Part shown: in pieces, positions 3,603 to 15,332 of the stretch
Numbering within the stretch: the first letter of the stretch is position 1
Layout of the letters: every line of letters begins with the position of its first letter
DNA from: Candidatus Bathyarchaeota archaeon
Lineage (GTDB): Archaea; Thermoproteota; Bathyarchaeia; Bathyarchaeales; Bathycorpusculaceae
Length of the DNA: 64,000 bases
NCBI GenBank assembly: GCA_963815095.1
Contig: CAWFFH010000003.1
Location: 1,376,001 to 1,440,000, forward strand
Reading direction: 5' to 3'
Translations under genes and position numbers: made by a program
Notes under the pieces: model-generated
The model's input: only the letters and a program-made list of their open reading frames with translations
The model's database searches: none
Told to the model about the DNA's origin: nothing

Positions 3603-6425
3603 ATGGTTACCACAAACCTTGACAAAATTTTCAATCCTCAAAGCGTAGCCATCATCGGAGCCAGTGATGTTGAAGGCTCAGTTGGATATGCTATAGTAAA
3701 AAATTTTACTCAGATGGGCTACACCGGCAAAGTTTATTTTGTTAACTTTCGAAAACCAGAGATTTTAGGTGTAAAAACTTACCCGACAGTTGACCAGATT
3801 CCTGAACCTGTTGACTTAGTAATCATTGCTACCCCCGCCAAAACCGTCCCAGACGTCATGGAGGAATGTGGCAAAGCACAGGTGAAAGGCGCAATAATTG
3901 TTTCTGCAGGCTTCAAAGAAACAGGTCCAGCAGGCAAAGCTTTAGAAGAAAAAATTCTTGAAGCATCCAAAAAATACGGAATCAGAATTATCGGTCCAAA
4001 CTGCATTGGAATTATCCGACCCCGAAATAACCTTAACGCAACCTTCCTTGATAAGATGCCTAAGGCTGGCAACGTAGCTTTCCTCTCCCAAAGCGGCGCC
4101 TTAGGTTCCGCAATCCTTGACTGGGCACTCCACGAAAACATCGGCTTTAGCAACTTCGTCTCAGTCGGATCCATGCTTGACGTGGACTTTGGCGATTTAA
4201 TTGATTATTTTGGTTCTGACCCAAAAACAAAAAGCATCCTCATGTACGTTGAAGGCATAACTGAAGCCCGCAAATTCATGAGCGCCGCAAGACACTTTGC
4301 ACGAACCAAACCAATCATAGTTGTTAAGTCAGGCAAATTTTCCGAAAGCGCAAAAGCTGCTGCTTCTCACACAGGTTCCCTTTCAGGGGAAGACAGCATT
4401 TATGATGCAGCATTCAAACGCGCCGGCATTGTACGCGTTAGCGAAATAGCTGACCTGTTTAATTCAGCTGAAGTTTTAGGCACACAACCGTTGCCTAAAG
4501 GTCCAAGACTTGCCATAATAACTAATGCAGGCGGACCTGGCGTAATGGCAACTGACTCACTTATTGGACAAGGCGGCAAACTGGCAAAACTAAGCCAAAA
4601 AACACTAGACTCTCTCAACGCTGTTTTGCCTCCATTCTGGAGCCACGGCAACCCCATCGACGTTTTAGGAGACGCCAAATCTGAACGGTATAAAGCAGCC
4701 GTTGAAGCATGCCTAAACGACGACAACATCGATGGCATCATGATTATTTTCACTCAACAAGCCGTTTCAGAATCAGTAGAAATAGCAAAGAACATCGTTG
4801 AATTAGTACGCAGCAAATCCTACCAAAACAAAACAATACTTACATCATTTATGGGATTTGGCGCAGTCCAAGAAGCCAATAACATTCTAAACGCAAACAA
4901 CATCCCCACTTACACAACACCCGAACAAGCCATTCGAACCTACATGTACATGTACAATTACAACCGCAACATAGACCTCCTCTACGAAACCCCCGAAGAA
5001 CTCCCAGTAGATGCAGCACCACCAAAACGCCCCATAATGGCAATTCTAAGAAACGCAGCATTTGAAGACCGCGAAATCTTAACCGAGGACGAAGCCAAAA
5101 AAATACTCAAATACTATAATTTCCCAGTCGTCAAAACCGAAGTTGCCAACACCGTTGACGAAGCAATAGCGTACTCTCAGGAAATGGGGTTCCCAGTTGT
5201 CCTAAAGATCTTGTCACCTCAAATCATCCATAAAAGCGATGCAGGCGGAGTAATCTTAAACGTTAATTCACCCACCGAAGTCCGCGAAGCCTTCGATCTT
5301 CTAATTCAAAGAGCAAACGCATACAACCCCAGCGCACAAATAATCGGCGTAACTGTTCAACCCATGATTGAAAAGAAAGGTCACGAACTCATCATCGGAG
5401 GAAAAACCGACCCCGTCTTTGGTCCAGTAATTCTCTTCGGTATGGGTGGAGTCGGCGTGGAACTCTTCAAAGACTACTCAATTGGACTTCCACCACTAAA
5501 CACAACCCTCATCCACCGCATGATGGACGAAACCAAAGTTTACCGCTTACTCAAAGGATGGCGTAACGCACCCGCGGTGAACCTCAAAAAACTCGATGAA
5601 ACAGTGCTCATGTTTTCTCAGCTGCTAGTTGATTTCCCCCAGATAAAAGAAATTGACATAAACCCATTGCTAATTAACGAAAAAGACGCTACCGTCCTTG
5701 ATGCTCGAATAGTCGTTGATAAGGATAAAGTTTGCAGGAAATTTGAGCCCCACGAACACATGGTTATCAGCCCGTACCCCAAAAAATACGAGGTACTGTG
5801 GTTACTCAAGAACGGTCAAGAAGTTCTCTTGCGCCCCATAAAACCTGAAGATGAACCCATGTGGCTTGAGATGTTCCAGAGCTTCTCAGAAGAAGCAATT
5901 CGCTACCGTTTCTTCCAAATGCTAAAAGATACACCGCATGAAGTCCGCGTCCGCTACTGCAACATTGACTACGACCGAGAAATCGCTATCGTCGCAGAAA
6001 TGGTGGATAATGGTAAAAGAAAAATCCTCGGTGTTACCCGACTCAGTCTTGAATCCGACGAAAAGAGTAGCGAAATGGCTTTCATTGTAAGCGACTATTG
6101 GCAGGGTTTAGGTTTAGGCACCAAAATGGTTGATTACGTGCTTGACATCGCCAAAGAGAAAGGCATGGAAAAGGTTCACGCAATCATATTACAAGACAAC
6201 TACCGCGCATTGAGCTTGACAAAGAAGATGGGCTTCAAAATCGAATACCTAACAGACGGCACCGTCAAAGCAACACTTGACCTAAAAGATGAAGACCTAG
6301 ACTTTCGATGTGCACAACTAAAACTGCCCGAGCCACCTCAAACAAAACAAGAAAAGAAACCGGAAGTAAAAGTTTCTGAAAGCAAAAAAGCAATCCGCGA
6401 GCCGCCAGAAGCGGCACCCGCTTAA
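3603..6425 (+). CDS. ADP-forming acyl-CoA synthetase alpha-beta fusion with C-terminal GNAT domain (Pat-type acetyltransferase architecture)
   Basis: CoA-binding IIGAS, GPNCIG, SQSGA, SHTGS, TNAGGPG, NPIDVLGD, ATP-grasp HKSDAGGV, DINPL, then GNAT RPIKPED...WQGLGLG. Confidence 0.9.
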   Translation: MVTTNLDKIFNPQSVAIIGASDVEGSVGYAIVKNFTQMGYTGKVYFVNFRKPEILGVKTYPTVDQIPEPVDLVIIATPAKTVPDVMEECGKAQVKGAIIVSAGFKETGPAGKALEEKILEASKKYGIRIIGPNCIGIIRPRNNLNATFLDKMPKAGNVAFLSQSGALGSAILDWALHENIGFSNFVSVGSMLDVDFGDLIDYFGSDPKTKSILMYVEGITEARKFMSAARHFARTKPIIVVKSGKFSESAKAAASHTGSLSGEDSIYDAAFKRAGIVRVSEIADLFNSAEVLGTQPLPKGPRLAIITNAGGPGVMATDSLIGQGGKLAKLSQKTLDSLNAVLPPFWSHGNPIDVLGDAKSERYKAAVEACLNDDNIDGIMIIFTQQAVSESVEIAKNIVELVRSKSYQNKTILTSFMGFGAVQEANNILNANNIPTYTTPEQAIRTYMYMYNYNRNIDLLYETPEELPVDAAPPKRPIMAILRNAAFEDREILTEDEAKKILKYYNFPVVKTEVANTVDEAIAYSQEMGFPVVLKILSPQIIHKSDAGGVILNVNSPTEVREAFDLLIQRANAYNPSAQIIGVTVQPMIEKKGHELIIGGKTDPVFGPVILFGMGGVGVELFKDYSIGLPPLNTTLIHRMMDETKVYRLLKGWRNAPAVNLKKLDETVLMFSQLLVDFPQIKEIDINPLLINEKDATVLDARIVVDKDKVCRKFEPHEHMVISPYPKKYEVLWLLKNGQEVLLRPIKPEDEPMWLEMFQSFSEEAIRYRFFQMLKDTPHEVRVRYCNIDYDREIAIVAEMVDNGKRKILGVTRLSLESDEKSSEMAFIVSDYWQGLGLGTKMVDYVLDIAKEKGMEKVHAIILQDNYRALSLTKKMGFKIEYLTDGTVKATLDLKDEDLDFRCAQLKLPEPPQTKQEKKPEVKVSESKKAIREPPEAAPA

Positions 6426-6513: not shown

Positions 6514-7959
6514 TTGCTCATCGTTGTTTTGATATGCAGCATGCTCCTTGTTACCAACGTAAAGGCTACCACCAATGTCAGTGGACTAATCTCTTCGGAT
6601 ACAACTTGGACACAGGCTAACAGCCCCTACTTACTAACTGGAACCTTAACAGTGAACAGTGGCGTCACCCTAACCATTCAGCCAGGCGTAACCGTAGACC
6701 TTGCTTCATATTCCTTTCTGGTCGGAGGCACATTAAACGCTACAGGCACAAGCGACAACAACATAATCTTTCAAACCTCATATTCTTACAGTTCAATTCG
6801 AATCCAGTTCTTATCCACGAGCGAGAATTGGACTGCCACGACAAATTCTGGCTGCACAGTTACCAATTCCCTCTTTAACTCAGTCGGAATAATAGTTACG
6901 AACTGTTCACCCAAAATAAGTAACAATTACTTTACCAACAACAGATTTACTCCAATTTCAGTAAATGGTGGCTCAGTTTTGATTGTAAGCAACACGTTCG
7001 ATTGCCAAGCAACAGCCATCACTGTCAGTGGTGTATCTGCTTCGCCTACAATTTCCAGTAACTTCATCAAATCCAACAGCTATGGCATTTACGTTACAGG
7101 TAACAACGCCTACATCTCAGACAACAACATAACCCGTTGCCCGACAGGCGTTTTTGTCACAGGCAACTCAACTATCACAAGAAACCTAATCACCAATAAC
7201 ACCAATGGAATTTACTCTCTAACCAATTTACCATGGATCGCGAATAACATAGTTGCCAATAACGGCATTGGCGTCATGGGTGGCGGAACCATACAAAATA
7301 ACACCATTGGAAACAACACAATAGGTGTCGGCGTATCTATTACTCCCAGCAACATAAACCAAAATAATTTTTTTAACAACACACAATTTAACCTTGGTTT
7401 AGCGATGTCAAATGCGACCGATGCAACCAATAACTGGTGGGGAACCACTGATATCTCGGCTATTAATCAGACAATTTATGACTCTAAAAATTCTACAAGT
7501 TTAGGCACTGTCAACTTTAATCCATTTTTGACTGAGCCAAACCCCAACGCACCTGCAATTGAGAGCATAAATTATGTTCCCGTGCCAACTCCTACACCTT
7601 ACCCAAGCTTAATTCCAGCTCCAACAATGACACCGTATCCAACAATTCATTCAACCCCACCACCATACCTAAACATTACAACGCCAACTCCGACGCCTAC
7701 ACCAACAGATACCCCAACACCCATACCAACACCATCCCCCCAACCAACCCCAAGCCCAATCCCCAAAAAAATGCCCGGCACACCGCTGAATCTGGCAGAC
7801 GCATCATTTATTGAAGGTATCTCGCAATTCGACATAACAAACGTAGCTAAACTCGTGCTCATTGCCTTAGGGATCATGTGGTTAATCATAATCTTGGTTT
7901 ATATTGACCGCGATTTCGGCAAAAAGACCACAAGAAAAGTAAGAAATAATGTCTGTTAG
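6514..7959 (+). CDS. Secreted right-handed beta-helix surface protein with Pro/Thr linker and C-terminal TM anchor
   Basis: Signal peptide, TTWTQANSPY, Asn-rich repeats, NNWWG, PTPTP linker, TM helix plus basic tail; paralog of 40812..42161. Confidence 0.8.
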   Translation: MLIVVLICSMLLVTNVKATTNVSGLISSDTTWTQANSPYLLTGTLTVNSGVTLTIQPGVTVDLASYSFLVGGTLNATGTSDNNIIFQTSYSYSSIRIQFLSTSENWTATTNSGCTVTNSLFNSVGIIVTNCSPKISNNYFTNNRFTPISVNGGSVLIVSNTFDCQATAITVSGVSASPTISSNFIKSNSYGIYVTGNNAYISDNNITRCPTGVFVTGNSTITRNLITNNTNGIYSLTNLPWIANNIVANNGIGVMGGGTIQNNTIGNNTIGVGVSITPSNINQNNFFNNTQFNLGLAMSNATDATNNWWGTTDISAINQTIYDSKNSTSLGTVNFNPFLTEPNPNAPAIESINYVPVPTPTPYPSLIPAPTMTPYPTIHSTPPPYLNITTPTPTPTPTDTPTPIPTPSPQPTPSPIPKKMPGTPLNLADASFIEGISQFDITNVAKLVLIALGIMWLIIILVYIDRDFGKKTTRKVRNNVC

Positions 7960-7973
7960 GAGCAAAGACGAAG

Positions 7974-8528
7974 ATGGTTGAGACGTTTTATCTGCACTTA
8001 GAATTCGCAGCCAAAAATGGCGGATGGTCCATTAATTTGCCTTTTTTGTGCAATAAATGCGGGGTCTGCTGCACCTTAGATGATTTCTTGACTGCAGGAG
8101 AAATCAACGCCAAACCCAAAGAGCAACCCGACGTCTTTGCCAAAATGAAGATCGTTACCGAAGAACTTGGTAAGATGTGGGGAGCTGACGAAGAAAAATA
8201 CGACCAATACATCCAACGCAAACCCTGTCCCTTTTTAGTAGAGAATGCCTGCTCTATCTATGAGATTCGACCTGAAGGGTGCCGCCGATTTCCCAACACC
8301 AAATTTGGCATGCTCACACAAGACTGCGAACCGTTGAATCGATTCAAAAAGCAACGCACAGCCTTAAAGAAAGCAAGAGCCACCAAAGAAACCTACCACT
8401 CAACAGAGGCAAACATTAAGCCGGTAAAATATGCAGAAAACCAGTTCCAAGCGTGCCTCACAAAACTACGTCAAGCTGGCATAACAGACGACGAATTAGC
8501 CCTTTTCAACGCCTTCAACGGAAGATAA
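7974..8528 (+). CDS. YkgJ-family cysteine-cluster (CxxCxxCC) protein
   Basis: FLCNKCGVCC, PCPFL...CSIYEIRPEGCRRFP. Confidence 0.8.
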   Translation: MVETFYLHLEFAAKNGGWSINLPFLCNKCGVCCTLDDFLTAGEINAKPKEQPDVFAKMKIVTEELGKMWGADEEKYDQYIQRKPCPFLVENACSIYEIRPEGCRRFPNTKFGMLTQDCEPLNRFKKQRTALKKARATKETYHSTEANIKPVKYAENQFQACLTKLRQAGITDDELALFNAFNGR

Positions 8529-8537
8529 ATTGCCAAT

Positions 8538-9110
8538 CTAATATTTCAGTTGGGCATACCTGAAGCAGCAGACTAAGTGGTCGTTTACTAACCCAGCAGC
8601 TTGCATGAAAGCGTAGCATATGGTGGGACCAACAAATTTGAAGCCCCTCATTTTCAGTTCGCAACTCATCGCTCTGGATAGCTCTGTCTCGGCTGGCACT
8701 TCAGAAAAATCGTTGAAGACATTCTGAACGGTTTTTCCATCTACGAACTTCCAGATGAACTTATCAAAGGAGCCGAATTCTTTTTGGATCTTAAGAACCT
8801 GCTGCGCATTAGTTATGGTCGCCAAGATTTTGGAACGGTTCTTAACTACACCAGGCGCTACCATTAAACGCTCAACATTGTGGTCACTGTACTCTGCAAT
8901 TTTTTTTGGTTCAAAGCCGTCAAATGCCTTCCTGAACATTTCTCGCCGGTCCAAAATCAGCCACCAAGACAATCCCGCCTGAAACGCATCCAAAACCAAA
9001 AACTCAAACAACTTCACATCATCGTGGACAGGAACGCCCCATTCTTCATCGTGGTACCTCAGATAGAGGGGCTTGTCAACGTTCCAACATCTCTTTAGCG
9101 GCGCAGTCAT
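8538..9110 (-). CDS. tag: DNA-3-methyladenine glycosylase I
   Basis: YHDEEWG, FQAGLSW, GFKFVGPT, QAAGLVNDHLVCC. Confidence 0.92.
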   Translation of the reverse strand: MTAPLKRCWNVDKPLYLRYHDEEWGVPVHDDVKLFEFLVLDAFQAGLSWWLILDRREMFRKAFDGFEPKKIAEYSDHNVERLMVAPGVVKNRSKILATITNAQQVLKIQKEFGSFDKFIWKFVDGKTVQNVFNDFSEVPAETELSRAMSCELKMRGFKFVGPTICYAFMQAAGLVNDHLVCCFRYAQLKY

Positions 9111-9141
9111 GGTTTGTTCACCCTTAAAGCAGAGTTAAAAG

Positions 9142-9693
9142 CTACTTGAGTTCTTTTCCTATACTCCAAGCTTTGGCGAATTTTTTGCCCAACCCATAGT
9201 AGCTCTGGTCATTCATAACAAACAAAATAGGCTGCACCTTCTCAAAATCTACCTCACCGTCAGTTAGGACTGATTCGTCGCAGAAGGTGTTTACAATTTT
9301 GCCAATGAATATATCGTGGCTTGGGAAATCAACAGTTTTTACAAGTTCGCATTCCATGTTGATGCTGCATTGTTCAATCATGGGGGCAGTTTTGAGTTTT
9401 CCATAGAACGTTTTGAAAATGGCTGCTTTGTTCTCGGTTTTTCCTGAAACTAAGCCACAGTGGTCGGTTTCTTTAACCATCGCTGTGGATGGTATGTTGA
9501 TGCTGAAGGTTTTGGATGCTTTAATGCCTCCGTTTGTGTAGTGGCGTTTGTTCATGCCAAGCGAAACCGACTCAAGTTCCATAATGCCCATATGCGCTAT
9601 GGTGACGTAATTGGGTTTTCCACCAACCAAAGCTCCAATAAGAGTGGTCGGCATTGGATAAAGACAGTTTTTTGCACCAAGTTCAATCTTCAT
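9142..9693 (-). CDS. Flavin reductase-like protein
   Basis: LYPMPTTLIGA, FSINIP, CGLVSG, APMIEQC..NMEC, HDIFIG. Confidence 0.85.
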   Translation of the reverse strand: MKIELGAKNCLYPMPTTLIGALVGGKPNYVTIAHMGIMELESVSLGMNKRHYTNGGIKASKTFSINIPSTAMVKETDHCGLVSGKTENKAAIFKTFYGKLKTAPMIEQCSINMECELVKTVDFPSHDIFIGKIVNTFCDESVLTDGEVDFEKVQPILFVMNDQSYYGLGKKFAKAWSIGKELK

Positions 9694-9897
9694 TATTTAA
9701 ACCTCAAAAAATTCTTGCCTATTGAAAAGTGTTTTTCTTAGTATTTTAAGTAAGCGACGAATAACGCCAATTGCTTGTTCATCTATTAATGTTAAGACTG
9801 TGTTTACAGGATTTTCTCAACTATAACTAATAAAGAACTAGCGGCTTTTTTTTGAAACTCTTATATACGCCATTTGATAATTTCTCTGTTGAGTGTC

Positions 9898-10206
9898 ATG
9901 GCTGAAGTTTGTTCAACGTGTGGACTACCTAAAGACCTTTGCGTTTGTGGAGAAATAGAGAAAGAGCAACAGCGCATTCGTATACGTCTTGAAACCCGAA
10001 AATTCGGCAAAGCAACTACCATTATCGATGGCATGGATGATAAGAATTCGAATTTGACAAGCATTGCTCAAAAACTCAAAACATACTGTGCATGCGGCGG
10101 AACCCACAAAAACGGGCAAATCATGCTCCAAGGCGACCACCGCGACCGCGTACGCGATTTCCTTGTTAAGATGGGTTATCCACAAGAAAACATCGAACTA
10201 CAATAA
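9898..10206 (+). CDS. sui1: Translation initiation factor aIF-1 (SUI1)
   Basis: CSTCGLPKDLCVC, RKFGK, LKTYCACGGT, LQGDHR; ATG at 9898 chosen as start. Confidence 0.92.
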   Translation: MAEVCSTCGLPKDLCVCGEIEKEQQRIRIRLETRKFGKATTIIDGMDDKNSNLTSIAQKLKTYCACGGTHKNGQIMLQGDHRDRVRDFLVKMGYPQENIELQ

Positions 10207-10241
10207 TCGCGTAGTCCCCAAAGCAAGGTGAATGGTTCTTA

Positions 10242-10469
10242 ATGAAAAAGTCAGATGGCATCCGCGATATTCTTAAAAACACCAAACATCGAAAACCCAC
10301 CCAAATTTACTGTCCTCGATGTGCTAGCCCAAAAATCAAGTTGTCTAGTAGTTTAGATATTTGGTTAACTCCAAGGCAATACTACTGTGAAAACTGTGGT
10401 TACCTTGGCATAATTGTTATGGAACTCGAAGAAAAAAACGAAGATGAAAAAGAAAAAGAAGAAACTTAG
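10242..10469 (+). CDS. Small zinc-ribbon protein
   Basis: CPRCAS...YYCENCGY; GGTGA RBS-like sequence upstream. Confidence 0.7.
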   Translation: MKKSDGIRDILKNTKHRKPTQIYCPRCASPKIKLSSSLDIWLTPRQYYCENCGYLGIIVMELEEKNEDEKEKEET

Positions 10470-10494
10470 ATTTGCTCAAATTAAGAAATATGCC

Positions 10495-11439
10495 CTAATC
10501 GGGCAATTCAAGATTTAATTGTTTTTTGAGTGTCTTGTAGCGGTTGCGCACTGTTACTTCGGTAACGCCGGCGGCTTCAGCGATGTCTTTTTGAGTTTTC
10601 TTCTCGTTGTTTTGCAGGCATGCAATGTATAGGGCAGCAGCAGCTAAACCCATCGGGTCTTTTCCTGCCGCAGCACGCTTTCGCCTTGCTTCACGAAGAA
10701 TTTGGATAGCTGCACCTTGAGTTTTGCCTGAGATGCCTGTTTTTTCAGCAATCTTTGACACGTATGTTAGTGGGTCAGCGATGGGCATATGAACGTCGAG
10801 TTCTCGCAATAGGAGTCTGTAGCATCTTGCAACATCTTTCTTGTCAACTAGGCTGGCTTCTGCGATTTCTCGGAGGGTTCTTGGGGTTCCGCTTCCACGG
10901 CACGCAGCATACAACGCGGCTGCGGCTATTGCTGCAATTGAGCGACCGCGAACTAAGCCTTTGTCGAGTGCTTTGCGGTAAACGACAGCGGCTTTTTCTT
11001 TAATTGGTGGAGGTATGTAGACTTTATCTGATAAGCGGTCAAGTTCAGCCATGGCTTGGGCAAGGTTGCGGTCAATGGATGAGTGAACTCTACTTCGAAT
11101 TTGCCATTTGCGAAGACGCCACATCTGCAGCCTAGTTGAAAGGGGCAGTTTTCTTCCAAACGCATCACGGTCCACTTGGCTGATGGCTGTGGATAAGCCT
11201 TTGTCATGAACGGAATAAGAAGTGGGAACTCCAACTCGGCTTCTGGAAGCTTTTTCTTCTTGGGTAAATGCGCGCCATTCAGGTCCTTTATCCATCATCT
11301 GCTCGTAGACGACCAGTCCGCAGTCGCCACATACGGTTTCTCCTGTATCGTAATCGTGAACTAAATTCTCGCTACCGCACTCTGGGCACTTGTCTTGCAA
11401 GCGCTGTGCTGTTTTGGGTGGTGTTTCTTTTTTGCTCAA
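10495..11439 (-). CDS. tfb: Transcription initiation factor IIB (TFB)
   Basis: CPECGS...CGDCG Zn ribbon, GPEWRAF, two cyclin repeats, GVTEVTVRNRYK. Confidence 0.97.
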   Translation of the reverse strand: MSKKETPPKTAQRLQDKCPECGSENLVHDYDTGETVCGDCGLVVYEQMMDKGPEWRAFTQEEKASRSRVGVPTSYSVHDKGLSTAISQVDRDAFGRKLPLSTRLQMWRLRKWQIRSRVHSSIDRNLAQAMAELDRLSDKVYIPPPIKEKAAVVYRKALDKGLVRGRSIAAIAAAALYAACRGSGTPRTLREIAEASLVDKKDVARCYRLLLRELDVHMPIADPLTYVSKIAEKTGISGKTQGAAIQILREARRKRAAAGKDPMGLAAAALYIACLQNNEKKTQKDIAEAAGVTEVTVRNRYKTLKKQLNLELPD

Positions 11440-11811
11440 TCTCTCTACCTCGATTTTGCTATGCGTAGAACCGTCACCAAGGCCATTTGGCTAGAAAGTA
11501 GTATATTCGGCCCGCGCAAACTATGCAAAGGAACGGACCTAATATTTAAGATTTGTGGTTTATTAAACTTATTGCACATAATGGTTTCGAATTGCCCAAA
11601 ATATCAAAATTCGCATATGGAAAATAACATAAAAAAGTGTAAAAAAGATCATAACTGCGTGAGGAAAAACGTCACTTTATATCATAAATCTCAATCAATA
11701 ATCAAAGAAAACCTAATCAACTTCCACCGCCAACCGTCAGAACGCTTATTAACAAAAAAGCCACCCATAAACCTCTAACAATAAATAAAACAGTGCTAAT
11801 TGAAACCGTGC

Positions 11812-11884
11812 AGCCCGGTGGTGTAGTGGTCAAGCATAGAGGGCTTTGGACCCTTTGACGAGAGTTCGAATCTCTCCCGGGCTA
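11812..11884 (+). tRNA. tRNA-Gln (TTG)
   Basis: Acceptor AGCCCGG/CCGGGCT, anticodon arm GAGGG-CTTTGGA-CCCTT, T-arm GAGAG-TTCGAAT-CTCTC; no intron, CCA not encoded. Confidence 0.93.
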
Positions 11885-12092
11885 CTTTTCGCGCATCTTG
11901 AGTTGGAGTTTTTATTCAAACCATTAAGCGAGATTAAGATAATATTAGATCGAACATCAAAGGTCAAACCACCCCAAAGATAAGGCAGGTTTTAGATAAA
12001 CGGACCCGAGAGTTCGGGCGCGGACTTAGTATTAACTTCGAAAATTCGTCAATTAGATAGAATAAGATTCACGTTAACTTTACGATAACAGT

Positions 12093-13196
12093 TTAGATTT
12101 TCACTTTGCAAATTTCGTATACAATCAAATGCGGATATTTCAAGTAAAACCTGTATAAATGAGGATTTTCTTTTTCCAATTCAACACTTGGATTGGGCTC
12201 ATAAATCCTAAAAATAGCCAAGGAATTCTCGCTAAGAGCGCTCGTCATTTCATCAAGGGTAAACCAATGGTGCGGATTGTCTTTAGCATTGTACTCTATT
12301 TTGTAATTAGGCAAACGTCCATGAAAGCGTCCTTTGCTTGAGGAAGTTATGCCTTTCGCAAGTTGACCAAAAAACGGATGCGCCTCAATAATAAAAAATC
12401 GACCCTCATCTTTCATAACTCTTCTAATTTCGCTTAAAGCCTGAGTGAAATCCTTATGATTATGCATTTGTCTACAATAGTCAAAACTCACAATCGTATC
12501 TATCGCGACAATATAGTCAAACTTTTCAGACGGCACATTTTTTGCAAAATCAAGAAAATCCCCCTGCAAAAACTCTACATTTTCAAGTCCTAGTCTTTGC
12601 TTAAGTTCATTTGCTTTCGAAATCAGAAATGCACTTCTGTCAATTCCAGTTACGTGTGCTCCATGTTTGGCTAAAATCTTGGAAAAGTAACCTGGTCCAC
12701 ATCCAAAATCGAGGATTGTCTTTCCAGATATTTTTTCTTTTGTAAAAAATTGGGTAACGAAATTTTCTACACAATATTTGTAGTATACTCGGCTTTCAGG
12801 TCGTATGTCTGAAACGTCATCGTAAAATTTCATTTTAAACCATTTTTCCATAGTCCCTTGCTGCTCATCATATTCCTTCAAAGTCTCACCCATTGCAGTT
12901 GTTATTGAATTGTTGACAGCCGACGCCACCAGCTTATTGATGTTTTGCAGGGACATATTTGAACCATAATTGTCTATGATTTTTTCGCCAAATGCAGAAT
13001 TTAGCCATTCTTTGTACTCGGGCAACATTTTTTCGATGACTTCACGGACGGTTGATTGCAGTTTTGCATAAATTTCTGGATCTAACTTTTCAAAATATGG
13101 AAGTTTTTCCGAAGGTGCGTTCAGGCGTTGATTTTGTTTTTTGGTTTTTGTATGTCTTTTAGAGAGGGTTTTGGTTGTTGGTTTATTTTTAGGCAA
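12093..13196 (-). CDS. Class I SAM-dependent methyltransferase with N-terminal domain homologous to the adjacent precursor peptide
   Basis: Motif I ILDFGCGPG, VTGIDRS, EFLQGDF, KFDYIV, RVMKDEGRF, HPF; residues 31-108 align with the precursor leader and follower. Confidence 0.88.
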   Translation of the reverse strand: MPKNKPTTKTLSKRHTKTKKQNQRLNAPSEKLPYFEKLDPEIYAKLQSTVREVIEKMLPEYKEWLNSAFGEKIIDNYGSNMSLQNINKLVASAVNNSITTAMGETLKEYDEQQGTMEKWFKMKFYDDVSDIRPESRVYYKYCVENFVTQFFTKEKISGKTILDFGCGPGYFSKILAKHGAHVTGIDRSAFLISKANELKQRLGLENVEFLQGDFLDFAKNVPSEKFDYIVAIDTIVSFDYCRQMHNHKDFTQALSEIRRVMKDEGRFFIIEAHPFFGQLAKGITSSSKGRFHGRLPNYKIEYNAKDNPHHWFTLDEMTSALSENSLAIFRIYEPNPSVELEKENPHLYRFYLKYPHLIVYEICKVKI

Positions 13197-13375
13197 AAAT
13201 AATCGCTGCTCTCTTTATGATCTCTCAAGATAATATTTATGTTTTTTTGCAGGATATGGAATCAAAAAGGAAACTGGCGGAATGCAAAGAAAAATGGTAG
13301 CCACTACACCTTTACTGCGTAAATGGTCGAGCGATTTTCAGTTAATGGCGTTCGGTTTCTGAACTGCGAAGCTTC

Positions 13376-13834
13376 TTATTTGAACTGCTCTTTCAAAGCT
13401 TGACGAATTGCTCCCATCATAGCCTCGTTGACAGCATTAACAACCTTGTCATCAATGTTTTTAGCTGGCGTGGGACATTGGTTGCTGCATGCACTGCACA
13501 ATTGTGTTGGGCAGTCATTTCCACATGAACTACACAGCTCTACTGGACAATCGTTTCCACATGAACTACAGATTTCTACCGGGCAATCGTCGGCTGCTAT
13601 CAATGAAGAATTTACCCATCGCTGATATTCCGGCAAAGTTTTTGCTACAGCATCACGTATTGTTGATTGCAGCTTTGCATACATTTTAGGATCCAGTCTT
13701 TCAATAGTTGGCATTTTTGCCAAAGTTTTCTGTAAACGCTTCTTTTGGGCTGGAGTCAATTTTTTTTCCAATGGAACAGCTTTTGATTTTTTTAAGGAAG
13801 AGTTGAGTATACGTTTATTTTTTGCCAAAAACAA
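13376..13834 (-). CDS. Putative RiPP precursor with Cys-rich 12-aa repeats flanked by leader and follower
   Basis: Core DCPVEICSSCGN-DCPVELCSSCGN-DCPTQLCSACSN-QCP (10 Cys); lies between rSAM/SPASM and methyltransferase genes on the same strand. Confidence 0.8.
   Translation of the reverse strand: MFLAKNKRILNSSLKKSKAVPLEKKLTPAQKKRLQKTLAKMPTIERLDPKMYAKLQSTIRDAVAKTLPEYQRWVNSSLIAADDCPVEICSSCGNDCPVELCSSCGNDCPTQLCSACSNQCPTPAKNIDDKVVNAVNEAMMGAIRQALKEQFK
13472..13588 (-). repeat. 36-bp coding tandem repeat (3 copies plus a partial) in the precursor core
   Basis: tttccacatgaactaca occurs at 13518 and 13554, 36 nt apart; the third copy is more diverged. Confidence 0.9.
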
Positions 13835-13916
13835 TCACTACATTGAGGTATTAACTCGCTTTATTTAATGTTTATTGTGAAGTAAAGTTGGGGGCTGGAT
13901 TATTGGACAGAATTCT

Positions 13917-15332
13917 TCAACCGTTGGCTTCTGAACATTGGTTTTTTTGAGATTCCAGCAAGAAATTGTATGAAATTAGGAGCTTTAGTATTTCATTTTG
14001 AAAAGCACAGAAGTAGTCTTCTTTTATGCCAAGTTGGCCAGTTTTAACATAGATATCGTAGGCGCATCCTCCGCCGCAAATTCCAATCGCCGCACATCGC
14101 ATGCAATCTTTATTTTTTAGAGTGCCTATTTCCAGCCATTTGTGAAATAATGGTTCTTCTTGAATTTTCAAATCATCTTTAATTGGAATTTGACATTTAC
14201 CCGACGGATAGAACGCATGACATGGTCCGACTGTTCCGGTTGGCGAAAAAAATAGTAGCTGACCAAAGGCTGGGCAATCATATATGTGAAATATTTCTTT
14301 GAAAAAATAATTTGCTCGCCGATTATCAATGCGATCTTCAAACATGTGTAATTCTTTTGCTCTCAAGTAGGCCGCAAAAAGATGATGCGCAAGCTTTTTG
14401 GGATCTGGCACCTCAAATTCGGTTGGCTCTTTAAGTCTGGTTAACAAGTTGAAGCCTATGGTTCTGATTCCCAGTTTTTGGATAAACTCTATTATTTCTT
14501 CTGCGTGCTCATAGTTCTGTTTTGTGATTGTGCATGATATTCCTATATTTAAGCCTGCTTCTTTCAGAAGAGCCAACGCTTTAAGTGCTGAATAGAAGGT
14601 TTCTTTTCCATCGGTGAAAACGCGGTTTCTATCAATGTTGGCCCATCCGTCAAGCGACAATCCAACGGCAACGTCGTGTTTTTTAAGTTTTTTAGCTATC
14701 TCTTCGGTTATTAGGCTCCCATTTGTTACGCAGGAAAACAGGAATTTCTTAGATGCCTGCTCGAGCTTCTCAATAATGTAGAAAACAATTTCGCTGTTGC
14801 TAAACGGCTCTCCCCCATAAAATGTAACCCTGAATTCTGGAACTTGCTTTGCCTCGTTGATTAGAACATTTATGACTTTATCCGCTAAATCCTTGGACAT
14901 CACTGTACTTGGTCTTTTCAGATTGTTTTCTATAAAACAGTAACCGCACCTGAAATTGCAGAAGTCAGTCACCAAAATATAGCCAAGGCTAGGTTGGGGG
15001 CTTTTCCTAAGCAAGCTGGCAGCAACGGCATCAAACACTTTTTTCGCATCAAAACCCCGAGGGACAACAAATTTTAGTTCAATTAACTCCTTGATGTCGC
15101 TACTGCGGATTCCGCTGCTTAGATCTGCCAAAATCTTTTCGTACTTTTTGTTGGTTAAATATATTTTTTTGAGAGTTAAAGAATTGAAAAGGCACTTCGT
15201 TGATTCATCAATATCGAACAGGTGGACAAACGGCGAAAGAATTAACTGGGCAGACTCTTCTCGGAGCATTTGCTTAGAAGGCTGGTTCTTATTTATAATC
15301 TCATTAACATCTTTAGACTGTTTTTTGCTCAT
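13917..15332 (-). CDS. Radical SAM/SPASM-domain peptide maturase with probable N-terminal RRE
   Basis: CNFRCGYC, FYGGEP, TNGSL, SLDG; SPASM cysteines YDCPAFG..GPCH..DCMRCAAIGICGGGCAYD..FC; about 110-aa N-terminal extension. Confidence 0.9.
   Translation of the reverse strand: MSKKQSKDVNEIINKNQPSKQMLREESAQLILSPFVHLFDIDESTKCLFNSLTLKKIYLTNKKYEKILADLSSGIRSSDIKELIELKFVVPRGFDAKKVFDAVAASLLRKSPQPSLGYILVTDFCNFRCGYCFIENNLKRPSTVMSKDLADKVINVLINEAKQVPEFRVTFYGGEPFSNSEIVFYIIEKLEQASKKFLFSCVTNGSLITEEIAKKLKKHDVAVGLSLDGWANIDRNRVFTDGKETFYSALKALALLKEAGLNIGISCTITKQNYEHAEEIIEFIQKLGIRTIGFNLLTRLKEPTEFEVPDPKKLAHHLFAAYLRAKELHMFEDRIDNRRANYFFKEIFHIYDCPAFGQLLFFSPTGTVGPCHAFYPSGKCQIPIKDDLKIQEEPLFHKWLEIGTLKNKDCMRCAAIGICGGGCAYDIYVKTGQLGIKEDYFCAFQNEILKLLISYNFLLESQKNQCSEANG

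Follow-up and report, generated by a model that had tools for sequence, protein, structure and literature searches.

The window, the 64,000-nucleotide stretch of Candidatus Bathyarchaeota DNA that was analysed, contains, on its minus strand, a peptide-maturation cluster of three genes, which encode a maturase of the radical SAM/SPASM type, a Cys-repeat precursor, and a class I SAM-dependent methyltransferase (MTase). The ancestral MTase of this cluster almost certainly took in an entire precursor gene in frame, once, after which the leader and the follower were kept by selection and the relic core decayed independently in different lineages. The fused piece comprises the start context, the TTG codon, the Lys-rich tail, the leader, a core collapsed to its first and last unit, and the follower helix, and the fusion joint is located a few residues ahead of the conserved M-E-K-W-F motif of the enzyme. 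The features of the three genes, in window coordinates, are as follows.

13917..15332, minus strand: radical SAM/SPASM-type peptide maturase, 471 aa, assigned from the Pfam Radical_SAM match and Cys motifs.
13376..13834, minus strand: precursor, 152 aa as listed, with a Lys-rich tail, leader, three 12-residue Cys repeats plus CPTP, and follower helix.
13607..13717, minus strand: leader block of the precursor (K40-S76), common to the MTase, from BLASTP and ungapped alignment.
13460..13606, minus strand: Cys-repeat core of the precursor, 49 aa with 10 Cys.
13388..13459, minus strand: follower helix of the precursor (N126-E149).
12093..13196, minus strand: whole MTase gene, 367 residues.
12852..13196, minus strand: N-domain of the MTase, residues 1-115, the fused pseudo-precursor.
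12996..13106, minus strand: leader-like block of the MTase (K31-S67), dN/dS 0.22.
12945..12995, minus strand: relic-core linker of the MTase, 17 aa, with no Cys in the window copy.
12873..12944, minus strand: follower-like helix of the MTase (N85-E108), dN/dS 0.50.
12093..12851, minus strand: class I SAM-dependent methyltransferase catalytic core, residues 116-367, Pfam Methyltransf_31.

The resemblance of the N-domain to the precursor was carried by two ungapped blocks, both of which the original prediction had described and both of which were recomputed exactly. Precursor residues K40-S76 matched MTase residues K31-S67 at 22 of 37 positions, and precursor residues N126-E149 matched MTase residues N85-E108 at 10 of 24. 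Between the blocks, the precursor had 49 residues with 10 Cys and the MTase had 17 residues with no Cys, also as predicted. None of 5000 shuffles of the MTase matched either block score, and BLASTP of the precursor against the MTase open reading frame gave E=2e-17 (38/123 identities), the alignment having a single gap region of 32 residues across the core. The leader of the N-domain is thus homologous to that of the Cys-repeat family (22/37, E=2e-17), and its follower helix (10/24) has the hydrophobic face in common with the precursor, while the core of 12-residue C-P-x-x-x-C-S-x-C-x-N-x repeats ending in C-P-T-P is missing. A profile from the N-domain and the precursor found 18 proteins among 1.84 billion representatives, all of which were precursors or their fragments apart from one MTase representative. 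The sequence and profile search of the PDB with the MTase returned generic Rossmann matches only (query positions 118-311), none of them in residues 1-115.

The similarity between the two genes at the DNA level extended 5' of both TTG codons. The predicted match of the start contexts was borne out at 21 of 25 bases, but the precursor start assumed with it had to be moved, since alignment with relatives placed the shared TTG at 13828 and the listed reading frame opens two codons upstream, at TTG 13834. The start codon of the MTase was TTG in all 17 intact orthologues. Upstream of it, the following features were recognized.

13197..13241, minus strand: 5' region of the MTase, termed type B, running from an A/T-rich box through the motif GCGATTATTT to TTG, its function being inferred.
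13248..13297, minus strand: what remains of a B12-binding radical SAM gene, namely its first ~17 codons, recognized by collinearity.
11812..11885, plus strand: tRNA-Gln beside the cluster, serving as a boundary marker only.

The type B region was conserved ahead of the MTase and of the second precursor copies (PRE2) in relatives, and GTGAT in the precursor version of this region was complementary to the 3' end of the 16S rRNA of the genome. The B12-radical SAM remnant was collinear with the start of the B12-radical SAM gene and the PRE2-to-MTase spacer in the second cluster of the genome. This gene is whole in relatives, and the rest of it has been deleted from the cluster in the window. As to the wider surroundings, only one protein of the flanking genes was matched in any of the 28 compared loci (L011-L038), which made the neighbourhood uninformative on function.

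The fusion proved to be neither unique to one genome nor decaying: it was carried by 22 loci in 19 Ca. Bathyarchaeota MAGs and by 44 clusters of long-form proteins, with dN/dS below 1, and is therefore conserved in homologous clusters and under purifying selection. Each of the loci examined also had separate precursor genes. A tree was built from N-domains (25 of the 44) and listed precursors (30 of the 120) chosen for spread; in it, all N-domains fell on one side of a single branch (support 75/88), and this split recurred in 82% of 200 bootstrap trees. None of 500 label shuffles was as low as the observed separation of N-domains from precursors, and identity to the N-domain of the window dropped as low as 36%. 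Judging from the tree, the capture of a precursor by the MTase occurred once. Bacterial relatives of the MTase, 53-65% identical to the core, were without the N-domain, and none of the 5 bacterial loci had an MTase with similarity to its own precursor. Among 200 other genomes sampled from the class of the window, 11 of them from the same genus, the cluster was not found, and the MTase occurred in 1 of 201, its own genome, which is read as a patchy distribution in that sample rather than absence from the group. With the cluster missing from these 200 genomes, any function would be dispensable for most relatives.

The linker between the leader and the follower retained traces of the core from which it was derived. 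Among the 44 long-form MTases, the linker contained two Cys in 4, one in 17, and none in 23, and the two-Cys linkers read D-D-C-S-N-N-C-P-T-P, which corresponds to the first and the last unit of the precursor core. The relic Cys position was occupied by C, Y, G, S, F, R or A, and all of these except A lie within a single nucleotide change of a Cys codon. The original description of the core as deleted needs qualification, since deeper-branching relatives kept a short relic of the first and last core units. Precursor homologues numbered 158, and among the 120 listed the number of repeats ran from 1 to at least 4, which makes the collapse of repeats natural in the Cys-repeat family. The relic core appears to have decayed independently in different lineages, and with the two-, one- and no-Cys stages preserved, the origin of the domain is legible directly from the sequence. 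Duplication of a precursor gene followed by its fusion to the enzyme, as originally proposed, was strongly supported by the alignment, the start-context DNA, the relic core, and the single-branch tree taken together.

It is highly improbable that the N-domain still serves as a substrate, as in a borosin-like enzyme that modifies itself. The two-Cys unit kept by 4 of the 44 long forms has a pattern identical to that of the last core unit of the precursor, as this reading would expect, but the linker has no Cys in the window copy and 22 others and a single Cys in 17, and separate precursor genes stand at each locus examined. Borosins of types I-III (OphMA-like) likewise join a SAM-dependent MTase and a precursor-peptide sequence in one polypeptide of a RiPP pathway, and both split (type IV) and fused forms exist (PMC8429565). 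The fused peptide of borosins is C-terminal, keeps its core, and is the substrate, whereas the Bathyarchaeota copy is N-terminal and coreless, with separate intact precursors adjoining. The fused peptide of a borosin carries the modified core; that of the window MTase does not.

Selection has acted differently on the parts of the MTase. In the window gene and 16 intact orthologues, the median dN/dS was 0.41 in the tail, 0.22 in the leader block, 0.32 in the linker, 0.50 in the follower, and 0.13 in the catalytic core, and in 12 precursor genes it was 0.73 in the tail, 0.15 in the leader block, 0.20 in the core, and 0.34 in the follower. The follower of the MTase was thus relaxed (0.50 against 0.34 in precursors), and its I-R-Q was lost. 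The frame was open over the N-domain and the core in 16 of the 22 loci. In two of the 22 (L026 and L027), a +1 frameshift in the relic linker parted the leader from the follower and the enzyme, which is either a sequencing error or a real split, and in the L025/P0049 lineage the leader motif of the MTase was degenerate, while the cognate precursor kept it. A contig from an RNA library of a relative (390 nt, 40 differences) crossed the junction of the N-domain and the core at 12767-13152; such a contig shows neither the strand, nor the ends, nor the level of a transcript.

These results bear on two explanations in which the peptide itself does little or no work. In the first, the N-domain is a passenger of regulatory capture: the precursor-type 5' region and start would have been selected for co-expression, and the peptide tolerated as a spacer. 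The near-identical upstream region and start shared by the MTase and PRE2, the conservation at the DNA level of the upstream motif and of codons 1-5 in both gene types, and the relaxation of the N-domain relative to the catalytic core are all in keeping with it. Yet the dN/dS of the leader block (0.22) was near that of real precursors (0.15), polar residues were conserved among N-domains down to 36% identity with that of the window, and the unconstrained relic core did decay, which shows how neutrality looks within the MTase gene. This explanation is accordingly held to be quite improbable. In the second, the annotation would be an artefact, the enzyme starting at M116 and the 115 upstream codons being a dead in-frame copy of the precursor. 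M116 is invariant, and some database gene calls of short forms begin at the equivalent Met, but 115 codons without a stop in 17 of 17 intact genes, despite identity down to 36%, and the dN/dS well below 1 are hard to reconcile with a dead copy, the equivalent Met is internal in the bacterial forms, and the RNA-library contig bridges the junction. An artefact is therefore very unlikely indeed. An internal start at M116 with its own ribosome-binding site was considered too and dropped, since the preceding Gly codon varied (GGG, GGA, GGC) and bacterial forms have this Met inside the protein.

Profile analysis placed both enzymes in broad families. Residues 157-273 of the MTase matched PF13847 (Methyltransf_31) with 93.3 bits (cut-off 27), PF08241 with 65.5 (21.2), and PF13649 with 65.4 (27); borosin enzymes belong to another methylase fold than class I Methyltransf_31/11/25. 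The precursor had nothing meaningful in Pfam or NCBIfam beyond weak LppA, TraB, and ISH6 matches below cut-off, and neither the precursor nor the MTase was represented as a family by a curated model in these two collections. The maturase matched Radical_SAM (PF04055) with 81.4 bits (cut-off 29.5) and contained the CxxxCxxC motif as C-N-F-R-C-G-Y-C. Pfam SPASM gave no match in its C-terminal 177 residues at E up to 10, but the SPASM-maturase models of NCBIfam aligned across this region, and a C-x2-C-x5-C-x3-C cluster was visible. For this maturase, which acts next to a Cys-rich repeat precursor, the best-scoring curated families were the FibroRumin-system and PapB-type (ranthipeptide) maturases. 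However, the scores were far below the curated cut-offs, being 178.3 bits against 400 for the FibroRumin maturase TIGR04136 and 154.6 against 340 for PapB NF047865, and the bacterial maturase relatives reached 218-236 bits against the same FibroRumin cut-off of 400. RREs are often missed by Pfam, and no match of the RRE/PqqD type was found in residues 1-118 of the maturase with Pfam at E up to 10.

Natural fusions of a radical SAM/SPASM maturase to the same type of MTase were found in three relatives of 803-820 aa (P0237-P0239), and P0072 was a fragment of this kind. In these proteins the MTase core was 58-61% identical and the maturase 31% identical, one of them aligning over residues 30-465 of the radical SAM enzyme (E=5e-56); the core is covalently tied to its partner enzyme but has no leader/follower domain derived from a precursor. 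In bacteria, the radical SAM and MTase genes overlapped by 4 bases in L034 and by about 200 bases in different frames in L031. Because of these fusions and overlapping genes, the MTase family seems to favour physical coupling to the maturation machinery. A non-covalent equivalent is conceivable in the archaea, in which the leader motif of the N-domain would dock on the leader site of the radical SAM/SPASM maturase or the B12-radical SAM enzyme and so form a stable complex of radical SAM enzyme and MTase. In addition to the three natural fusions in the same enzyme family, the conservation of the shared leader motif on all faces, as expected for a segment held in a groove, speaks for this docking. 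Moreover, the MTase of the archaea is preceded by a 5' region of its own and lies apart from the radical SAM gene, with other genes in between, so coupling via adjacent translation is unavailable to it. A domain seated in the leader site of the maturase would nevertheless compete with the real substrate; the equivalent of precursor residues 25-44 has been freed from constraint in the N-domain, so that the mimic has lost the maturase-binding element, if that segment is one; and an RRE-type domain was not confirmed in the N-terminus of the radical SAM enzyme (Pfam, E up to 10). Docking of this kind is regarded as fairly unlikely.

The presence of a coreless copy of the substrate in the enzyme suggests an unusual way of finding the substrate. 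The reading that we put forward, tentatively, is that the N-domain acts as a coreless pseudo-precursor that pairs with the helices of the real precursor, and that the substrate bridges a ternary complex. Heterodimerisation with the substrate had been one of the two mechanisms originally proposed, the other being docking on the RRE of the radical SAM enzyme. The N-domain would then be a non-modifiable pseudo-precursor that keeps the C-terminal part of the leader (E-K-L-D-P, Y-A-K-L-Q-S-T, and K-T-x-P-x-Y-x-x-W) and the hydrophobic face of the follower. In real precursors, the C-terminal part of the leader and the follower would pack together and self-associate, and pairing of the coreless copy with the precursor would place the Cys core beside the catalytic domain of the enzyme. 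Residues 25-44 of the precursor leader would be left free to bind the radical SAM enzyme or enzymes, by which the substrate would bridge the maturation complex. Comparison of 44 N-domains with 115 precursors showed that residues 25-44, I-R-Q (143-145), and Q-F-K (150-152) were conserved in precursors only, and that the C-terminal motifs of the leader and the hydrophobic positions of the follower were conserved in both. The shared conservation of the follower had helical periodicity (R=0.54, reached by 27 of 5000 shuffles), which fits packing by one helix face. The leaning of the family towards physical coupling also counts in favour of the pairing. The shared conservation of the leader formed one unbroken stretch, Y-A-K-L-Q-S-T, that showed neither helical nor strand periodicity, and it fits a segment gripped all round by a partner at least as well as helix-helix pairing. 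Further points against the pairing are the relaxed follower of the MTase, the degenerate leader motif in L025/P0049, the frameshifts in L026 and L027, the lack of an RRE/PqqD-type Pfam match in residues 1-118 of the maturase, and the lack of the cluster in the 200 sampled genomes.

Complex prediction with the full MTase and the precursor gave a score of 0.53 against 0.00 for the best control, with contact agreement of at least 41% and partner pLDDT of at least 54 among the runs. Of 80 solved complexes, 58 attained the mark, as did 2 of 110 mismatched pairs, and scores of 0.60 or less comprised 7 of the 80 solved complexes and both passing mismatches. The prediction gives weak support for binding of the MTase to the precursor and reports no interface, and such binding is expected anyway, as that of an enzyme to its substrate. 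If the pairing holds, it would constitute a new mode of substrate recognition, in which leader and follower pair like with like via a fossil of the substrate, the substrate bridges the MTase and the maturase, and no RRE-type domain is needed on the tailoring enzyme; this wider claim is possible, though doubtful. In P0062 and P0238, a short segment ahead of the MTase core resembled (E about 1e-3) the junction between leader and core in precursors of Bacillota. As a weak lead, the same pairing logic may exist elsewhere in the family; searches of 400 genomes in each of two phyla found no such locus outside the starting genome, and the N-terminal extension did not appear in 15 metagenome loci.

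The N-domain may instead bind in cis to its own catalytic domain, either as a pseudosubstrate that blocks the enzyme until the modified precursor displaces it, or as a built-in leader that switches the enzyme on. The autoinhibitory pseudosubstrate segments of protein kinases are substrate-like, lack the modifiable residue, and are built into the enzyme, where they are short binders of the active site. The N-domain shares their defining trait, being a substrate copy without modifiable residues, and its leader motifs are retained under selection; it differs in keeping leader and follower without the whole modified region. Fusion of the leader to the N-terminus of LynD or MicD yielded constitutively active enzymes (PMC9052802), which would favour the built-in leader. 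According to the same source, these engineered LynD-F and MicD-F enzymes and an earlier fusion of a lanthipeptide synthetase likewise carry the leader on the N-terminus of the enzyme in place of the substrate. They are man-made, act in cis, and need no leader on the substrate, whereas the archaeal fusion is natural and ancient, includes the follower, and has substrates that keep their leaders. Against binding in cis, the bacterial cores, 53-65% identical, work without such a domain, and the leaders of bacterial precursors are unrelated, a hint that this leader is not read by the core. Binding in cis is thus considered unlikely.

Fusions of precursor and enzyme are known in which the fused peptide is the substrate, and fusions of leader and enzyme are known from engineering. 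In an uncultured archaeal lineage, nature kept an enzyme with the recognition parts of its substrate minus the modified part, and separate substrates are still encoded. A search of open full-text literature, judged mainly on titles and the starts of abstracts, found no description of the Bathyarchaeota cluster or of a natural tailoring enzyme with a coreless precursor copy, so a prior description is possible. If the N-domain recruits the substrate or a partner enzyme, it would be a compact natural docking module, reusable to steer tailoring enzymes to chosen peptides. It also offers a way into a family of Cys-repeat peptides, cross-phylum and uncharacterised, that has follower helices and no curated model. 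The proteusin/NHLP precursors likewise have a long, partly structured leader homologous to an enzyme domain, the alpha subunit of nitrile hydratase (PMC10858898); there the direction is the reverse, with an enzyme subunit that became a leader, whereas in the Bathyarchaeota a whole precursor became a domain of its own tailoring enzyme.

The cluster consists of three ORFs on the minus strand, spanning 12093 to 15332 of the window:

13917-15332, minus strand, radical SAM maturase of 471 aa
13376-13834, minus strand, Cys-rich precursor ORF of 152 aa
12093-13196, minus strand, methyltransferase (MTase) of 367 aa

The maturase is a radical SAM enzyme whose nearest curated families are the SPASM-type peptide maturases FibroRumin and PapB, at scores far under their cut-offs. 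The precursor contains a Lys-rich tail, a conserved leader of about 50 residues, a core of three 12-residue repeats C-P-x-x-x-C-S-x-C-x-N-x terminated by C-P-T-P, and an amphipathic follower helix. Residues ~145-275 of the MTase form a class I SAM methyltransferase domain, well over the Pfam thresholds, and residues 1-115 (the N-domain) had no match in Pfam, NCBIfam or PDB. Proteins 88-95% identical to those of the cluster came from Ca. Bathyarchaeota or Bathyarchaeia MAGs. The 16S rRNA of the genome is archaeal, and by our own reading of the ORFs the window carries a TFB-like gene; both assign the organism to the archaea.

The N-domain resembles the precursor with its core removed, as the original prediction had described. 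Precursor K40-S76 matched MTase K31-S67 at 22/37 identities (leader) and precursor N126-E149 matched MTase N85-E108 at 10/24 (follower); between these blocks the precursor has 49 residues with 10 Cys and the MTase has 17 Cys-free residues. Either block score was reached by 0 of 5000 shuffles, and BLASTP of the precursor against the MTase gave E=2e-17. The start contexts, also said to be alike, are identical at 21 of 25 bases by our own count, and in the DNA alignment the similarity extends upstream of both TTG codons.

The proposal that a precursor gene was duplicated and fused to the enzyme was borne out, as five lines of evidence show that a whole precursor gene was captured a single time by the MTase. 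Precursor and MTase genes share a conserved TTG start (17/17 intact MTase genes); in both gene types, G-(T/C)-G-A-T-T-(G/A)-T-T-T stands before it and codons for (P/S)-K-N-K come after it. The GTGAT element complements the 3' end of the genome's own 16S rRNA and may serve as a ribosome-binding element. A mis-called MTase start is extremely improbable. Between leader and follower, the deeper-branching MTases contain D-D-C-S-N-N-C-P-T-P, which reads as the precursor core minus all internal repeats. Such a collapse is plausible because the precursors themselves differ in repeat number, from one to four or more among the 120 matches listed. Among the 44 long forms, the relic linker contained two Cys in 4, one Cys in 17 (closer relatives) and none in 23, the window copy included; the lost Cys was replaced by Y, G, S, F, R or A, all except A one base from a Cys codon. 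In borosins of types I-III, a methyltransferase is fused to a precursor still serving as substrate (excerpts of PMC8429565); for an N-domain with such linkers, a role as residual substrate is scarcely credible.

In a maximum-likelihood tree of 25 of the 44 N-domains and 30 of the 120 listed precursors, hand-picked for spread, all 25 N-domains fell on one side of a single branch, apart from the 30 precursors (support 75/88, in 82% of bootstrap trees), and the precursors nearest to them also had the W-L-N-S-x-F-G-E motif. Bacterial MTase relatives, from Verrucomicrobiota, Bacillota and Alphaproteobacteria MAGs and metagenome contigs, contained no N-domain and in 5/5 loci did not resemble their own precursors. 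An N-domain profile searched against 1.84 billion representatives matched only 18 proteins: besides the MTase representative, these were precursors and fragments. Neither another enzyme with the domain nor a wider HMMER-detectable leader family appeared among these matches.

A protein search with the MTase found 97 proteins, 44 of them with an N-terminal extension of at least 105 residues bearing the leader-like domain (59-95% identity over the whole length) and about 30 others matching in the catalytic core only (49-61%). The fusion is widespread in homologous clusters of a single lineage, since a scan of species-representative genomes found the full-length MTase in 22 loci of 19 Ca. Bathyarchaeota MAGs, with N-domain and core in one open frame in 16 and frame breaks in the remaining 6. 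The usual order was maturase, precursor, a 531-aa B12-binding radical SAM enzyme (top match a RiPP C-methyltransferase family, under cut-off), a second precursor in 6/22 loci, and MTase. The cluster is patchy and often multi-copy, because the MTase gene was not found in 200 other sampled genomes of the class (11 of the same genus), flanking genes were not common to the loci compared, and one MAG had three loci and another two. An archaeal-type metagenome contig (L098, 1607-4919) had the order precursor, MTase with N-domain, maturase. In a Methanoregula MAG (L037, 5995-6366), the sole match was a stop-free stretch of 124 residues, 57% identical to the MTase C-terminus, which looks like a gene remnant.

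Purifying selection was evident from Nei-Gojobori dN/dS values for the window MTase gene and 16 intact orthologues (132-135 usable of 136 pairs) and for 12 precursor genes.

dN/dS by segment (MTase; precursor)
Lys-rich tail: 0.41; 0.73
Leader block: 0.22; 0.15
Linker (MTase) or core (precursor): 0.32; 0.20
Follower: 0.50; 0.34
Catalytic core: 0.13; not applicable

The N-domain is therefore constrained at the protein level, about 1.5-fold more loosely than real precursors. Peat metatranscriptome assemblies include a relative's 390-nt contig that crosses the N-domain/core junction, and a 261-nt contig identical to window 13371-13631 (precursor core and follower, the 3' half of the gene) was present in two soil metatranscriptome assemblies of two studies; these contigs represent presence in RNA libraries rather than transcript ends or strand, and the 261-nt contig may be RNA or carried-over DNA.

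In our reading, the N-domain is a pseudo-precursor that cannot be modified and is kept by selection, a putative tether of the enzyme to the maturation complex. Comparison of 44 N-domains with 115 precursors by position showed that both kept the leader motifs E-K-L-D-P, Y-A-K-L-Q-S-(T) and K-T-x-P-x-Y-x-x-W-x-x-S and the follower positions V-V-x-A-V-N-x-A-M-x-x-A-x-x-x-A-L. The common follower positions had a clear helical periodicity, reached by 27/5000 shuffles, and the common leader run had none. Conserved in precursors only were residues 25-44 (K-L-T-P-A-Q-K-K-R-L-x-K-T-L-A-K-M-P-x-I), the follower I-R-Q and the C-terminal Q-F-K. Our preferred, still tentative, reading is that the N-domain would pair with the leader-C and follower helices of the precursor itself, so that the precursor-only segment 25-44 would stay available to the radical SAM enzyme(s).

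The original prediction had proposed either such heterodimerization or docking on the RRE of the radical SAM enzyme. Complex prediction with full MTase and precursor, each with a separate alignment, lent weak support to binding between the two proteins, with a score of 0.53 (top control 0.00), contact agreement between runs of at least 41%, partner pLDDT of at least 54, and no interface given in the output. The score mark was reached by 58/80 solved complexes and 2/110 mismatches; at scores of 0.60 or below, just 7 of the 80 solved complexes reached it, plus both passing mismatches. Three proteins of 803-820 aa (P0237, P0238, P0239) are homologous radical SAM/SPASM maturases fused to the MTase, P0072 is a fragment of this type, and the maturase and MTase genes of bacterial loci overlap or adjoin; the family therefore appears to tend to couple the MTase physically to the maturation machinery. 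Direct docking of the N-domain on the maturase is unlikely but a serious competitor, and action in cis, as pseudosubstrate or activator, is decidedly unlikely.

In loci L011, L017, L021 and others, two types of upstream region were observed, one for the first precursor copy (PRE1) and another, nearly identical, for the second (PRE2) and the MTase, which suggests that a block of 5' region plus gene start may have been copied repeatedly within the cluster. The N-domain as a mere passenger of 5'-region capture is quite improbable alongside its protein-level constraint. About 132 kb away, the window genome contains a second, fuller cluster with two precursors and the B12 enzyme, and with three genes split by breaks that are either real decay or assembly errors (maturase 213+300 aa, B12 enzyme 400+128, MTase 133+243):

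G000:C3:1512000-1531000, about 6879-12293, paralogous cluster L007: maturase, precursor, B12-binding radical SAM enzyme, second precursor, MTase

The B12 gene is missing from the window cluster and likewise from locus L036. The window precursor-MTase spacer (13197-13375; compared with L007 8775-9010 and 10985-11210) is collinear with the L007 PRE2-to-MTase spacer, and in both the opening ~17 codons of the B12 gene survive. Upstream, the window precursor is of PRE1 type, yet its downstream flank is of PRE2 type; together with the collinear spacer, this would fit a recombination between two precursor copies that deleted the B12 gene. In two MAGs (L026 and L027, both 6200-6420), a +1 frameshift at short G or C runs within the relic-core linker splits the leader part from the follower and enzyme, with the D-D codons (GATGAT) supplying an ATG in the new frame; its cause is either faulty sequencing or natural un-fusing of the N-domain.

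Among known systems, leaders have been placed on enzymes in engineered LynD and MicD fusions (excerpts of PMC9052802), and proteusin leaders derive from an enzyme subunit (excerpts of PMC10858898). An archaeal RiPP survey described radical SAM-type clusters as widespread, and the word Bathyarchae was absent from it (excerpts of PMC12144867). Searches of open full-text literature turned up no paper dealing with this cluster or with a natural fusion of a coreless precursor to an enzyme.

A cross-phylum bacterial family had the same layout, a Cys-repeat precursor followed by maturase and short-form MTase (L031 3658-4242; L032 3897-4442; L033 6781-7311; L035 6820-7308; L034 3931-4245; L092, L095, L097 and L099). 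Its precursors combine a leader with Cys repeats, of CxxxCxxx type or otherwise, and with a long follower helix in which the motif (R/K)-(F/Y)-G-(D/E)-x-x-K-I-L recurs. Among curated NCBIfam models, none matches the precursor and none names the MTase. Directly before the MTase core, P0238 (491-514) and P0062 (4-32) contain P-G-P-G-K-S-F-S-R-S...C-P-T-D-C-T-S. Their cognate loci were not found in 400 genomes of each of two phyla or in 15 metagenome loci. These segments resemble the leader-core junction of Bacillota precursors (12/28 identities, E=0.003; 13/37, E=0.001; E per single comparison) and may represent a second piece of precursor origin that this enzyme gained independently.
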